From a virus (lineage: Duplodnaviria > Caudoviricetes): a stretch of DNA of 64,000 nt. This document shows positions 28,163 through 33,105 of the stretch, one piece after another. Every line of letters begins with the position of its first letter. Within the stretch, counting starts at the first letter, position 1. The notes under the pieces were generated by a model. The model had not been told where the DNA came from, did not search any database, and saw only the letters and a list, made by a program, of their open reading frames with translations. The DNA is taken from the IMG/VR virus record IMGVR_UViG_3300049210_000020, positions 2,834 to 66,833 of that record; one strand, given 5' to 3'. The position numbers were made by a program, and so were the translations under genes.

Positions 28163-29235
28163 TCACCCTTAATAGAAAGCAGCTGGCTGACAGCCTGACA
28201 CTGCTCTCCTCGGCGCTGGAAGTGAGAACTGCACAGCCGATTCTAGGCTACATGAAGCTTGAAGCCGCGCAGGGAACCGCAACGCTCACAACCACGCGGC
28301 TCGACGCTACCTTGAGCGTCAGCGTGCCCTGTGAAGGCGATGATCAGGTCTGTTTATTGTTCGCGCCGTTTCGAGACGCGGTAAAGTTGGCACCTGACGG
28401 TCAGGTCAGGCTGCAACGCTTTGAGAACCGCTTTGAAGTCACTGCGGGCCGCTCTCGCCACCGGCTTCCTATCTACGAAACCGACGCTTTTCCAGCAATG
28501 CCCGTCGAGACAGGCCAGACGCTATCAGTTGACGCCAAACGTCTCTTGGACGCTGTAGAACGGGTTAGCCCTTGTGCTGATAAGCGTGAGGGCAGATACG
28601 CGGCTCAAGGCGTGTGTTTAGAGGCGGCAGAAGGTGAACTGAACGTAGTTGCGTGTGACGGCACACAGGCGGGGATTGTGCGGCTAATGGACAGCGATCT
28701 AACGTTTCAGTCCACCGTGCCGAACGTCGCGGTCCCGGCGCTGCGAGCGGTATTAGCTGATCGGGACACGGCCATGCTGACGGTGAATGAAAACAGTCTC
28801 ACAGTGGAGTGCGAGGGCCGCAAGATGGTAACGCGACTCCTGCTCGGCACATTCCCGCCGTGGCGCATGATTGTGCCGACTGAGACGCCGCATAGCGTGA
28901 CGCTGACTACTGAGGTCAGGGATGCAATCCGGCGCTGCTGCGTAACTGCCAGCGAGGGGAATCTGGTACGGCACAGGCTAAAGCTGGAGTTTGAGCGCGA
29001 ACGGCTTACAGTGTGTTCTTATGAGGGTGACGGGGAGTCGATTGAAGAGGTTCCGGTGAATTGTCCGACACTGAACGGGGAATCGCTGATTGTAAAGGTG
29101 AACGCGGATCAATTGCTCGCGTTTCTAGGGCAGGTGGACACGCCGGAGTTGAGGCTGAAAGACGCGACTTCGATCCTGCTATTGACTGAGGGCGATCATC
29201 GTTATTTACATGCTACGTTGAGGCCGGACGCATGA
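28159..29235 (+). CDS. dnaN: DNA polymerase III beta sliding clamp homolog
   Basis: 358 aa; QPILGYMKLEA, TTTRLDATL, FPAMP, QGVCLE, VACDGTQ, VTRLLLGTFPPWRMIVP, VKVNADQLLAFL. Confidence 0.9.
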   Translation: MITLNRKQLADSLTLLSSALEVRTAQPILGYMKLEAAQGTATLTTTRLDATLSVSVPCEGDDQVCLLFAPFRDAVKLAPDGQVRLQRFENRFEVTAGRSRHRLPIYETDAFPAMPVETGQTLSVDAKRLLDAVERVSPCADKREGRYAAQGVCLEAAEGELNVVACDGTQAGIVRLMDSDLTFQSTVPNVAVPALRAVLADRDTAMLTVNENSLTVECEGRKMVTRLLLGTFPPWRMIVPTETPHSVTLTTEVRDAIRRCCVTASEGNLVRHRLKLEFERERLTVCSYEGDGESIEEVPVNCPTLNGESLIVKVNADQLLAFLGQVDTPELRLKDATSILLLTEGDHRYLHATLRPDA

Positions 29236-31142
29236 AGCCGTATTACGAAGATGAACATGTACAGATCTGGCATGGGGATTGTCGGGAAGTAATAAAGACG
29301 CTCGCTGACAGTTCAGTTGATTCAGTTGTTTGCGATCCCCCCTACGAGCTCGGATTCATGGGCAAGGGCTGGGATCGATCAGGAATCGCTTACGACATTG
29401 CGGTGTGGTCTGAGTGCTTGCGTGTTCTTAAACCCGGCGGTCACCTGCTTGCGTTCGGAGGCTCACGAACTTATCACCGCTTAGCTTGCGCGATCGAAGA
29501 TGCGGGCTTTGAAATTCGCGATCAGATTCAGTGGATTTACGGATGCCTGAGCGATGATACAGAAATCCTCATCAATGGGCAGTGGGAGCCTTACCATAAA
29601 GCCGTAAAAGGTAGTCCCGTATTATGCTACAATGTGGGCCATGACACCTTTGAGTGGCAGCCCGTCCAAGACCTGTACGTCTATCAATACAGCGATACCG
29701 CATACAGAATTCAATCGGCTTCTACGGATCAAATCGTCTCCCGAAATCATCGCTGCATCGTTGAACGAAGCGGAGCGTACACATTCGGAGTTGCTGAGGA
29801 AGTCGCACGGGAACGCGAAGCGCGTGTACCCGTTTTGGAAAACGTGTCGGCAGTGCTCGACGCCTTTTGCATGTTGGACCAAAGAGCAAGCTGTTCGGAA
29901 TGCGACGTGCTCTCCGTTATGCACAGCGAAGGCAATCTCGACCGCAAAGAAGGGAAAAACAAAACCTCTTTCGGAACGGAAGGGGCGGGTGATTATTTGT
30001 GCGGTGTGTCGCAAGAAGAAATGGAAGCCGGATGCCGCGCTTCGCAAGGTGGAAACGCCAACGTGCTCATATCAGTGCAACGGAAAATTGCGGAGCACGA
30101 CTCTAACCAAAAACAAGTTCGACAGAACCGGAATGAAGTTTCCGGGCACGGGGCTAAAGGGCGACAAGAATCCGGCGTGGAAGGGCGGTGTAACTTATTT
30201 TCGGAAACACGGCAACTACAAGCCCATCAAGTATGTGCGATGCCCGCCGGAATTTCAGGCAATGGCCCGCAAGGATGGCTACGTGATGGAGCATCGTCTT
30301 TTGGTGGCCCAAGCAATCGGACGGTGTTTGCTTCGGCTGGAGACAGTTCACCACGACGATCACGATCCTGCCAACAACGAATTGACGAACTTCCTTCTTT
30401 TTGCCACGAACCGCGATCACAAACTGTACGAGCATCACGGTTCACCCGCACCGATCTGGCGCGGATAACCCCCTTTCATTATGACGGCGTTGTCTGGTGC
30501 GTTCGCGTGCCTTCGGGCGCGTTTGTGGCGCGGCGCAACGGTAAGGTATTCGTTACAGGCAATTCAGGCTTTCCCAAATCATTGGACGTGTCGAAAGCAA
30601 TTGACGCGGCTGCGGGAGCGGAACGTGAGATTGTTGGGCGCAAGCCGATAGGTTGGGGCGGTCTTCACGCCAATGCGCGGTTGAACGATGATGGTTGGGC
30701 CAAGATTGGAAGTGATTATCCCGATGGACAACCGATCACCGCTGCAACATCAGACGGGGCCAAGCAGTGGAACGGCTGGGGCACAGCATTAAAGCCCGCA
30801 CATGAGCCGATTGTGTTAGCCCGCAAGCCTATCGTTGGCACCGTTGCCCAAAACATACTTGAGCACGGAACGGGCGGGCTAAATATCGATGGGTGCAGAA
30901 TTGAAGGTAGAAGTTGGGGAAGTCGTCCCGCGATTAAATTAACGAGCAAGGGTAAAAGCGGCGGGGGCTTCGGACAGACCTCGTGGGAACCAATAGCAGG
31001 GCAAGTCAACGAAGATCGCGGTCTCGGACGCTGGCCCGCAAATGTTATCACGAGCTACCCCGAAGATGAATACGCGCTCCGATCCAGCATAACACCAGAG
31101 CAAAAGAAAGAGCTATTCAAGTGGCTATATGAGAACGCCTAA
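29232..31142 (+). CDS. DNA amino-methyltransferase (N6/N4), N-terminal part, intein-containing
   Basis: IWHGDCREV, SVVCDPPYEL, LRVLKPGGHLLAFG, FEIRDQIQWIYG|intein|SGFPKS, GTALKPAHEPIVLARKP, GRWPANVI. Confidence 0.88.
   Translation: MKPYYEDEHVQIWHGDCREVIKTLADSSVDSVVCDPPYELGFMGKGWDRSGIAYDIAVWSECLRVLKPGGHLLAFGGSRTYHRLACAIEDAGFEIRDQIQWIYGCLSDDTEILINGQWEPYHKAVKGSPVLCYNVGHDTFEWQPVQDLYVYQYSDTAYRIQSASTDQIVSRNHRCIVERSGAYTFGVAEEVAREREARVPVLENVSAVLDAFCMLDQRASCSECDVLSVMHSEGNLDRKEGKNKTSFGTEGAGDYLCGVSQEEMEAGCRASQGGNANVLISVQRKIAEHDSNQKQVRQNRNEVSGHGAKGRQESGVEGRCNLFSETRQLQAHQVCAMPAGISGNGPQGWLRDGASSFGGPSNRTVFASAGDSSPRRSRSCQQRIDELPSFCHEPRSQTVRASRFTRTDLARITPFHYDGVVWCVRVPSGAFVARRNGKVFVTGNSGFPKSLDVSKAIDAAAGAEREIVGRKPIGWGGLHANARLNDDGWAKIGSDYPDGQPITAATSDGAKQWNGWGTALKPAHEPIVLARKPIVGTVAQNILEHGTGGLNIDGCRIEGRSWGSRPAIKLTSKGKSGGGFGQTSWEPIAGQVNEDRGLGRWPANVITSYPEDEYALRSSITPEQKKELFKWLYENA
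29544..30563 (+). mobile_element. Intein (340 aa) in the methyltransferase
   Basis: Block A CLSDDTEILING, block B DQIVSRNHRC, block F/G YDGVVWCVRVPSGAFVARRNGKVFVTGN followed by +1 Ser; removal restores WIYG-SGFPKS. Confidence 0.9.
29632..30468 (+). CDS. HNH endonuclease encoded in +1 frame inside the intein
   Basis: CRQC, CAVC...CSYQC, KGDKNPAWKGG, DGYVMEHRLLVAQAIGRCL...ETVHHDDHDPANNELTN; true start uncertain. Confidence 0.85.
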   Translation: MWAMTPLSGSPSKTCTSINTAIPHTEFNRLLRIKSSPEIIAASLNEAERTHSELLRKSHGNAKRVYPFWKTCRQCSTPFACWTKEQAVRNATCSPLCTAKAISTAKKGKTKPLSERKGRVIICAVCRKKKWKPDAALRKVETPTCSYQCNGKLRSTTLTKNKFDRTGMKFPGTGLKGDKNPAWKGGVTYFRKHGNYKPIKYVRCPPEFQAMARKDGYVMEHRLLVAQAIGRCLLRLETVHHDDHDPANNELTNFLLFATNRDHKLYEHHGSPAPIWRG

Positions 31143-31758
31143 CTGTAAATGCTTGGTTTGCGCGAAGCCACTCTATCGCCGTCCGTTTGAACTGGCGAAG
31201 GTGAGACATGTCGCATGTATGGCCCACCGTGCGGAGGCGCAGAAGCTCTCCGGTATCACGGAGAAACAACGCGCGGGCCTTGCTCTTGGAAGTGTTAAAG
31301 GGACGAATCACCGGGAGGGCCACGTCAAGAGCGAAACAACCAAGCTCAAGATAGCCGAGGCCAACAAGAAATATTGGGCTGACCATCCCGCCGAGCTTGC
31401 TGCCAGAGGCGAACAGATGCGCGGAGAAAACCACTATCAATGGAAAGGTGGCATAACGGAACTAAATAAGGCAATTCGGCAGATGAACGAAAACCGCAAA
31501 TGGATGGATGCTGTAAAGGAACGTGATAGTGAGAAGTGCACTCGTTGCGGCTCGGTAGAGGAAATCGAAAGCCACCACATTATTGAACTCGTGACGCTAA
31601 TTGAAATCTACGAAGTTAAGACGCGAGACGATGCGCGGGCCGTTCCTGCGTTTTGGGACTTGAGCAACGGCGAAACGCTTTGCCGACGATGTCATTACGC
31701 GGAACACGGAAGGACATATCGTGCAGATAGAAGAGACGACATACAAGAAGCTGCCTAA
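31129..31758 (+). mobile_element. Free-standing HNH endonuclease splitting the methyltransferase
   Basis: CLVC, NUMOD3-like HVKSETTKLKIAEANK, GENHYQWKGG, ERDSEKCTRCG...ESHHI...WDLSNGETLCRRCH. Confidence 0.85.
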
Positions 31759-32374
31759 CCATCTAAAGGCGTTGTTTTACAAGCTGCCGAATCCCGGATC
31801 AGATGAAGTGCTGGCAGCGTTTCCAGACGCACCGGGGCAACAGCGCAGCGCGAGCGACAGCCAGCGGACGCAAGGTCTTGTTTATAGCGCAATCAGTCTG
31901 AACGGGACTCGTATACATGAACCGCGTGAAGACTTTGGCTCTGCAGCGCGATTCTTCTACTGCGCGAAAGCAAGCCAAGAAGATCGAAACGAAGGCTTAG
32001 AAGATCTTCCAATGCAGAGCGCGGGCGCGGTCACTGATCGCAAGGACGGAAGCGCCGGCCTGAACTCACCACGAGCTGGAGCGGGCCGAAATAACGGATC
32101 GCGCAACCCTCATCCAACAGTTAAGCCAACCGACTTAATGCGGTATCTCTGCCGACTCATAACGCCTCCGGGCGGCACAGTGCTAGATCCGTTTTGTGGA
32201 TCAGGCAGCACGGGCAAAGCAGCGGTGCTCGAGGGGTTACGGTTCATTGGCGTTGAGTTAAGTGCTGAATATTGCGAACTGGCTCGACGTCGAATAAAGG
32301 TGCAGTACAACAGAATGACCTTGTACCACCTGATAGAAGCTAAAGAACGACAGGGAGCGCTGCTTGATGGCTGA
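31721..32374 (+). CDS. DNA methyltransferase, C-terminal part
   Basis: GSDEVLAAFP, SAARFFYCAKAS, NPHPTVKPTDLMRYLCRLITPPGGTVLDPFCGSGSTG (SAM motif), FIGVELSAEYC. Confidence 0.9.
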   Translation: MQIEETTYKKLPNHLKALFYKLPNPGSDEVLAAFPDAPGQQRSASDSQRTQGLVYSAISLNGTRIHEPREDFGSAARFFYCAKASQEDRNEGLEDLPMQSAGAVTDRKDGSAGLNSPRAGAGRNNGSRNPHPTVKPTDLMRYLCRLITPPGGTVLDPFCGSGSTGKAAVLEGLRFIGVELSAEYCELARRRIKVQYNRMTLYHLIEAKERQGALLDG

Positions 32375-32540
32375 CGACACGAAAATCGACGCTGACCGCG
32401 AGTGGACTCCTGATCGAATAGCGGCGCTGGAGTGCGTGGATCGCGGTGAAGGGTTGAAGCCGTGTCATGTTTATGTTGACGGGAGCGGGAGATGTCAATG
32501 CGGCGACGGGCCGGATTTGAATGAGCGGAGGGTGAAGTGA
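32367..32540 (+). CDS. Hypothetical 57-aa protein (not in track)
   Basis: MADDTKIDADREW...; GTGA coupling downstream. Confidence 0.45.
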   Translation: MADDTKIDADREWTPDRIAALECVDRGEGLKPCHVYVDGSGRCQCGDGPDLNERRVK

Positions 32541-32843
32541 GCGACTTAACTGAGAGAATATGCATGGCCCAAGTCGAAGCGGGCGAGAATGCTGTCGTTG
32601 ACGATCTGCGCCGGAAGGGGTTACTACCACCAACAAAAACCGCCATCGCAATTCGACTTGGATCAGCTACGCAGCCACATGCGAGAGTTCATCGACGAGC
32701 GCGCGCCGGATAGTTCATCGGTGACGGAGTACGAATGGCCCTTTGAAACGTTCCTTCAATGGCTCAGTAAGCGCCGCGTGGCAGACGACAACGTACTGAC
32801 ATTCAAAATTGAGAAGGGAGCGGGGAATGGGAATGTATCGTAA
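32537..32843 (+). pseudogene. ORF with apparent +1 insertion
   Basis: GTG start coupled to upstream stop; ...LLPPT then KPPSQFDL in +1 frame at A5 run 32635-39; length 3n+1. Confidence 0.4.
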
Positions 32844-33105
32844 GAAGCCTATTGTAATCGAAGCTGAACAGTTTCATGGCGCACGAATCGGACAGGATAC
32901 ATCCGAATGGATTGACTCGTTTCCGCGTGGCGTCTGCTTTAAGGGCTGCTCTGGTTCTCGGTTTCCACACCTGCATACAATTCATCAAGGGCAAGTCGTA
33001 GATCTGGTAGACGGCGATTGGGTTATACCTGAGTCTGACGGCGAGCACTTTTATCCGTGTAAGCCTGATGTGTTCGCGGCTACTTACGAGAAAGTTGAGG
33101 GCTGA
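32833..33105 (+). CDS. Conserved phage protein (YRKKPIVIEA family)
   Basis: MYRKKPIVIEAEQF...GDWVI...YPCKPDVFAATYE. Confidence 0.75.
   Translation: MYRKKPIVIEAEQFHGARIGQDTSEWIDSFPRGVCFKGCSGSRFPHLHTIHQGQVVDLVDGDWVIPESDGEHFYPCKPDVFAATYEKVEG

Follow-up and report, generated by a model that had tools for sequence, protein, structure and literature searches.

A predicted HNH endonuclease gene in the +1 frame of a phage DNA methylase intein

Free-standing homing endonuclease genes split phage genes or nest within them, as in the case of mobE in the nrdA gene of Aeromonas phage Aeh1. In inteins, nucleases read out of the splicing frame have been described in two preprints: Gosselin, Arsenault and Gogarten (bioRxiv 10.1101/2025.01.02.630785) reported actinophage inteins with the nuclease in another frame or on the other strand, where the out-of-frame type is endonuclease VII-like, HNH nucleases occur in frame only, and no methylase is among the hosts, and Phillips et al. 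(bioRxiv 10.64898/2026.09.14.751524) reported an out-of-frame LAGLIDADG nuclease under frame-dependent selection in a cyanobacterial dnaX intein. An out-of-frame HNH nuclease is known from the ShiLan domain of mycobacteriophage gp65, a DNA methylase, where no splicing domain accompanies it (Arsenault, Gosselin and Gogarten 2025, PMC11855218). Here we describe an intein in a DNA methylase of this same family, with an HNH endonuclease predicted in its +1 frame, from a phage record (IMG/VR IMGVR_UViG_3300049210_000020, 66.8 kb, about 99% complete) found in public runs that are soil and rhizosphere metagenomes, no RNA run being among those listed. The window, as we call the whole stretch of 64,000 nucleotides that was analysed, covers positions 2,834 to 66,833 of that record. 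The methylase inteins of the mycobacteriophages Dorothy, Lilac, Martik and ShiLan sit at the site of the window intein and have an in-frame centre of the LAGLIDADG type (PMC9957025).

We consider it very probable that the locus is an intein at the conserved WIYG/SGFPKS site of a phage DNA methylase with an independent HNH gene, in the +1 frame, occupying the endonuclease slot, so that two proteins would be made from the same stretch of mRNA. A single open reading frame (ORF) of the + strand, 29232-31142 (636 amino acids), reads through the whole element without a stop. Its similarity to methylases covers ORF residues 1-115 (PF01555 and phrog_67) and resumes after residue ~445 (phrog_3008). The features, with their expectation values (E) and predicted local distance difference test scores (pLDDT), are as follows:
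29232-29543, + strand: N-extein, the N-terminal part of an N6/N4 DNA methylase (DPPY motif), ending WIYG (PF01555, E 5e-9; phrog_67, E 2e-42; aligns with intein-free methylases)
29544-30563, + strand: predicted intein, 340 codons from Cys1 to Asn340, with Ser+1 of SGFPKS next (invariant residues, profile match to 6zgq, AlphaFold2 and Foldseek, BLASTP with Dorothy gp75)
29544-29873, + strand: predicted N-terminal splicing domain, blocks A and B, intein residues 1-110 (pLDDT >90; residues 1-50 vary most at intein codon position 3)
29632-30468, + strand: predicted HNH ORF in the +1 frame, 278 amino acids from ATG 29632, with an alternative ATG at 29641 and a conserved core from 29824 (PHROG matches, invariant residues, I-HmuI match, 111 IMG/VR relatives)
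29682-29823, + strand: putative dual-coding stretch, where block B (intein residues 47-93) overlies the N-terminal extension of the HNH protein (near-fixed synonymous sites, deficit of HNH-frame stops)
29889-30410, + strand: stretch (residues 116-289) that the intein frame is predicted to pass through as a linker, with no fold and only stop-free (pLDDT <50; variation peaks at intein position 1, equivalent to HNH position 3)
30411-30563, + strand: predicted C-terminal splicing domain, blocks F and G, intein residues 290-340 (pLDDT >87-98; intein third-position entropy 1.5-1.8; phrog_32482, an intein-bearing family, E 2e-4)
30564-31142, + strand: C-extein, the middle part of the methylase (SGFPKS ... 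TALKPA ... RWPANV), whose stop is made by a second insertion (phrog_3008, E 2e-14; ORF list)

Comparison with relatives and structural modelling together confirm 29544-30563 as an intein in an N6/N4 DNA methylase (WIYG/C...TGN/SGFPKS), with splicing as a prediction. Cys1 is encoded at 29544-29546, block B reads S66-R-N-H69, and T338-G339-N340 directly precedes the Ser of SGFPKS. When 49 distinct relatives are aligned, C1, H69 of SRNH, F327, R331, T338, G339 and N340 are invariant, and so is the block F cysteine, C319, which together with T338 is reminiscent of class 3 inteins, yet Cys1 is invariant too. The profile built from this alignment matches the AceL NrdHF intein (6zgq, E 1e-7). The AlphaFold2 model has a pLDDT above 90 for residues 1-110 and 290-340 and below 50 for residues 116-289, and the top 40+ Foldseek matches to it are all inteins or Hedgehog or BIL Hint domains. 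The window intein can also be aligned end to end with the 327-amino-acid intein of Dorothy gp75, inserted at the same site (BLASTP, E 1e-15). Uninterrupted forms of the site are known as well: the YG-SGFPKS junction is continuous in phage Cr-LKS3 and in 20 IMG/VR loci of the loop class (see below), and the short span of the DNA matches in Monet and DLane implies that they have no insert.

The +1 frame (29632-30468) is confirmed, by profile matches and comparison with relatives, as coding for an HNH endonuclease with two zinc fingers, whose activity is predicted. The protein matches six PHROG families of HNH nucleases (E 3e-12 to 1e-4), while Pfam HNH_3 falls under the cut-off (E 0.042). Among 41 relatives, two four-cysteine zinc fingers, the motif NPAWKGG, E156-H157-R158, H176, N189, N196 and H199 are invariant, and every one of these zinc-binding and catalytic residues is intact in the window. 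The AlphaFold2 model of this protein reaches a mean pLDDT of 84, and its catalytic part finds its best structural match in I-HmuI (1u3e; Z 5.4 over 77 residues), with other HNH enzymes at Z 2.6-3.8. Foldseek with the whole model returned no significant match, probably because its three domains are flexibly linked, and a sequence-profile search of the PDB with the HNH alignment gave weak zinc-finger matches only. When the window protein was searched by tblastn against GenBank phages, the sole full-length match was in an uncultured jumbo phage (LR756508.1), where the frame offset is the same. A preliminary description of the locus, made from the sequence alone, had already recognised the intact splicing blocks (C1, SRNH and TGN/S) and the zinc-finger/HNH protein ending at block F, both of which are borne out by these results. 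It had also noted a featureless intein centre, and featureless it is, although its length is about 175 residues (116-289) and not the ~230 then given.

The coexistence of both frames is not due to chance. The +1 frame is open over 29608-30468, a span in which the third frame has 11 stops, and its ATG at 29632 gives the 278 amino acids listed above. If the codons of the HNH frame are shuffled, either in order or synonymously, the intein frame should acquire 9-13 stops, and all 20,000 shuffles put at least one there, so the double open frame is real. The HNH stop (TAA, 30466-30468) falls within the Ile-Thr codons of the intein directly before block F.

The same layout recurs in relatives. A scan of IMG/VR with the HNH core yielded 111 relatives, of which 80 loci (38-63% identity) were kept. 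In 78 of these 80 the frame equivalent to that of the intein is stop-free across the HNH match, as part of an open frame of 415-1190 amino acids, and the remaining frame has 2-23 stops. The loci can be divided into three classes: 58 with the same intein at the same site (HNH frame broken in one), 20 loop-class loci with an out-of-frame HNH in the GFPKS-GTALKP loop of the methylase, no intein and an open host frame (three broken), and 2 free-standing HNH genes. For the 49 unique intein-nested loci taken together (10,168 HNH codons), 451 stops would be expected in the intein frame and 0 are present; the third frame contains 585. The intein frame is kept clear through a single avoidance, as T occupies the third HNH position before AA, AG or GA in 0 of 2836 cases, compared with 25.5% elsewhere. 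The suspicion voiced in the preliminary description that selection keeps both frames open is thus well supported. Genomes from GTDB agree: in 17 of 18 loci the host frame is stop-free, at least 11 of them are intein-nested, and they come from metagenome-assembled genomes of many phyla. Where the HNH frame is broken by an early stop (L032, L051, L066/L069), the methylase frame is still open, and the nucleases of these loci seem to be decaying towards mini-intein or plain loop forms.

Codon-position entropy in the 49 inteins, together with shuffles, allows the zones of selection to be inferred, with the limit that both ignore phylogeny. At intein residues 1-50 and 297-340 variability is highest at intein position 3, whereas at residues ~113-296 the peak shifts to intein position 1, equivalent to HNH position 3. 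In these comparisons, selection accordingly acts on the intein frame in the two terminal parts of the intein and on the HNH frame in its centre. Between them, at intein residues ~47-100 including block B, all three codon positions are constrained. Synonymous choice in the intein frame is near-fixed there (GAA in 43/43, GGA in 43/45, CGA in 37/40, GTT in 38/42), whereas the third position is free at equally conserved residues of blocks F and G, as are the synonymous sites of residues 1-46. Stops in the HNH frame number 3, with 70 expected, over residues 47-95, and 109, with 86 expected, over residues 1-46; this deficit from residue ~47 onwards indicates that the HNH ORF extends upstream, well beyond its conserved core. 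By these comparative measures, about 50 codons over block B are truly dual-coding, being constrained in both frames. Near-identical variants from soil follow the same pattern, as all 8 listed differences in 29552-29576 fall at intein third positions and 10 of the 13 listed in 29901-30353 at HNH third positions, the latter arguing that purifying selection on the HNH frame is current.

Regarding the start of the HNH gene, an ATG is shared at one alignment column by 31 of 53 loci, formed by an intein-frame Tyr codon (TAT) and a following codon with initial G (Glu or Asp). In many of these loci no other start intervenes between an HNH-frame stop and this ATG, and in many AGGAG lies 8-10 nucleotides before it. 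The window does not have it; its subgroup (19 loci) has an ATG at another column, 29641 here, and the window an additional one at 29632. In one soil variant ATG 29632 is lost (G>T at 29634) and 29641 is kept as GTG. Internal initiation at 29641 or 29632 is the favoured candidate on this comparison. Other starts were considered and rejected. The GTG at 29824, where the free-standing copy L053 does start, is GTG in only 15 of 53 loci and ATA, ACA or GCG elsewhere, so it cannot serve as a family-wide start. The TTG at 29761 recurs in 45 of 53 loci with no upstream signal, but the conserved Val-Glu codons of block B produce it as a by-product, and it is therefore inseparable from the dual-coding constraint. 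The PFW codons were also considered as a slippery site and dismissed for want of conservation. Among the starts contemplated in the preliminary description, the upstream ATGs thus come out ahead, and the TTG near 29761 and a frameshift fall behind.

On this basis, the following mechanism can be envisaged. The methylase precursor would be translated through the intein frame, the middle of which would serve as a linker, disordered and free of stops, and both ends of the intein would assemble into the Hint domain that splices the intein out. The HNH nuclease would be initiated internally, at ATG 29632 or 29641, and would presumably cut intein-free methylase alleles, the repair of which would copy in the intein together with the HNH gene. 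Selection on the methylase would bar stops from the intein frame at the cost, for the HNH gene, of one synonymous choice, namely no third-position T before AA, AG or GA. As for the origin, the most likely one would be the invasion of a resident intein by a free-standing HNH gene.

Several observations weigh against this explanation. The penultimate intein residue is Gly and not the usual His, and Pfam and NCBIfam scans of the intein frame made no Hint or intein call. A second HNH gene (31129-31758) splits the methylase downstream, which makes an active enzyme from the window copy uncertain. No Shine-Dalgarno motif precedes ATG 29632 or 29641 in a phage that uses such motifs weakly overall (19 of 60 crude ORFs against a background of 13%, an uninformative scan), and the family has no start codon common to all its members. 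The penultimate Gly and the split methylase would suit an intein that no longer splices, in which case either the methylase tolerates the insert as a loop, the proposal made for the ShiLan domain, or its gene is dead, and related HNH genes do occupy unspliced loops of the same methylase family. We nevertheless regard this as improbable: C1, H69, N340 and Ser+1 are invariant, blocks F and G are under strong intein-frame purifying selection in 49 diverged loci, the insert interrupts a conserved core motif instead of a variable loop, and a dead gene would not avoid the 451 stops expected. Marginally more credible, but still improbable, is a programmed +1 ribosomal frameshift, which would produce a fusion of the N-extein, the N-terminal intein domain and the HNH, with no separately initiated protein. 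Such a mechanism would account for the lack of a family-wide start, the poorly shared core GTG included, and for an HNH frame open well upstream of the core. However, the stop directly before an AGGAG-preceded ATG, found in many loci, is the signature of a normal gene start, the T-run at the start of the core (the PFW codons) varies, with TTC and TAT variants, and a fusion devoid of blocks F and G would be unable to release itself.

Two further readings are less probable still. The HNH ORF might be an unexpressed relic in this phage, the element being in effect a mini-intein with a long linker; the missing ribosome-binding site at the window HNH start and the relatives with broken HNH frames (L032, L051, L066) are compatible with it, but the intact invariant zinc-binding and catalytic residues and the soil-variant differences concentrated on HNH third positions in 29901-30353 make it very unlikely. 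Lastly, the frame offset might be due to assembly or sequencing indels in a true intein with an in-frame HNH. This artefact, which the preliminary description had raised as its own possible undoing, is conceivable a priori and would require two compensating indels. Contigs of four independent soil or rhizosphere studies span the region with no insertion or deletion and do not bring the HNH into frame, and the same offset is found in 58 IMG/VR contigs, in LR756508.1 and in at least 11 GTDB contigs, which leaves the artefact next to no probability.

Taking the locus as a splicing intein with an internally initiated HNH gene, its closest counterparts are the out-of-frame-nuclease inteins of the preprints cited above. 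As in those, a nuclease ORF on the same strand occupies the endonuclease slot, where the intein frame remains open yet encodes a disordered stretch, purifying selection acts on the nuclease frame, and invasion by a free-standing nuclease gene is the proposed origin. The differences lie in the nuclease, HNH in the window and endonuclease VII-like or LAGLIDADG in theirs; in the host, a methylase in the window and terminase, polymerase, capsid, thymidylate synthase or dnaX in theirs; and in the overlap, since their ORFs are reportedly mostly outside the splicing domain, whereas that of the window extends ~50 codons into block B. With the Dorothy-type intein, the window shares the identical site (YG/C...TGN/SGFPKS), homologous splicing ends and near-identical blocks F and G. 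Contrary to the in-frame LAGLIDADG that fills the slot in Dorothy, the slot in the window holds a disordered read-through over the HNH gene. The mobE-type genes offer a further parallel, as they are free-standing HNH-type genes targeting a conserved phage gene, which is exactly what the gene at 31129-31758 does, but their insertions break the host frame and the intein-nested HNH does not.

The ShiLan domain, to which the alternate-frame HNH of actinobacteriophage methylases mentioned in the preliminary description can be traced, resembles the window in its methylase family, its hidden-frame HNH, its stop-free host frame and the HNH stop within TAAC at the 3' end of the insert, and the HNH cores are homologous (29% over 104 amino acids, E 1e-9). 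However, the ShiLan insert comes after TALKP and has no splicing domain, whereas the window HNH is inside an intein ~100 codons upstream. Being within a bona fide intein, the latter would allow the methylase to be restored by splicing, unlike in ShiLan, and the intact Hint domain around it means that it is not a ShiLan-type member. The ShiLan site, after TALKP, also differs from the loop site of the IMG/VR loci, which is before GTALKP.

Another insert of this kind can be found in the cultured cyanophage Cr-LKS3 of Cylindrospermopsis (L004, OM373202.1), whose g59, annotated 'DNA methylase', has at ~1690-2450 a ~230-codon insert after TALKP and no intein. Its +2 frame encodes an HNH of 251 amino acids from stop to stop, the methylase frame is open, and the target motif is partly duplicated (LKPALE.. 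/ VKPNLD..). Judged by sequence, it is a ShiLan-type hidden HNH outside actinophages.

The novelty implied by the preliminary description was too high, given that out-of-frame intein nucleases are the subject of preprints of 2025 and 2026. Our literature search found no paper on an out-of-frame HNH inside a methylase intein, and what may be new is that the HNH ORF overlaps block B, that a single HNH lineage has moved between intein and loop sites, and that the family is so widespread among uncultured phages. As the principle is already published, the added value lies in breadth, statistics and detail, such as the block B overlap and the context switching, and not in a new concept.

Different lines of evidence bear on the mobility of the element. 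In pairs of loci such as L009/L016 and L063/L080, the HNH and splicing domains are 87-92% identical and the exteins 48-49% identical, and the overall correlation between extein and HNH identity is weak (r 0.34). Contigs from soil runs in which this phage is present match the N-extein as far as the insertion point (loose ends at 29544 in X5 and 29525 in X4) and then continue directly with the SGFPKS codons, from which it follows that intein-free and intein-bearing alleles coexist in the same soil samples. The discordant identities and the coexisting alleles are compatible with active homing, and the element is probably still mobile. In the HNH tree, the context (intein, loop or free) switches at least 5 times, with 2-3 of the switches forced by well-supported branches, such as the one joining L047 (intein) and L060 (loop), and loop-class relatives match the hidden HNH of ShiLan, Mantra and Starcevich (E 1e-12 to 1e-16). 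We tentatively suggest, as an idea that stands somewhat short of even odds, that the HNH ORF is a 'frame-transparent' homing cassette, autonomous and moving by itself among at least three methylase havens (the intein slot, the GFPKS-GTALKP loop and the ShiLan site after TALKP), and that overprinting of its ~50 N-terminal codons on block B has, in the intein lineage, locked nuclease and splicing domain together genetically.

If the proposed arrangement is correct, a selfish nuclease gene and a self-splicing element would be able to share DNA without harm to the host gene, the nuclease paying a small cost in synonymous codons and the intein removing the meaningless read-through from the host protein. 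The case would support the view of intein origins in which splicing came first and the nuclease later, and a single HNH lineage would connect the methylase intein with the hidden HNH of ShiLan, both of them oddities already in the literature. It also shows that automated annotation conceals an entire class of nucleases within 'methylase' ORFs, represented by 58 IMG/VR contigs and by none in cultured-phage records.

Some further features of the relatives and of the neighbourhood deserve mention. The only matches in cultured organisms are a loop-class hidden HNH on a 156-kb scaffold of Cupriavidus sp. UYPR2.512 (L096) and a free-standing HNH copy on the 567-kb plasmid pCPAA3 of Curtobacterium pusillum (L102). 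In most of the loop-class loci inspected (L048, L050, L059, L064, L065, L070-L073, L081 and L082 from IMG/VR; L096, L101 and L104 from GTDB), the host frame has a CxC just before the hidden HNH and a CxxC just after it, adjoining GTALKP, and the insert-free methylases inspected are without these cysteine pairs. They may represent the two halves of a zinc ribbon clasping the ends of the disordered read-through loop.

Around the window locus, a search of 28500-33000 with Rfam at a permissive threshold found no group I or II intron and no other RNA family. The second HNH gene (31129-31758) is of the PF01844 type and unrelated to the hidden HNH, and splits the same methylase into two ORFs, with the DPPY motif on the one ending at 31142 and the S-adenosylmethionine-binding motif DPFCGSGS on the other, 31721-32374. 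Both cut ends of the methylase (31040-31142 and 31721-32374) bear short, extra, helical-looking tails, and a 'TPEQ' tail like that of the split methylase also ends Martik gp66 and ShiLan gp65.

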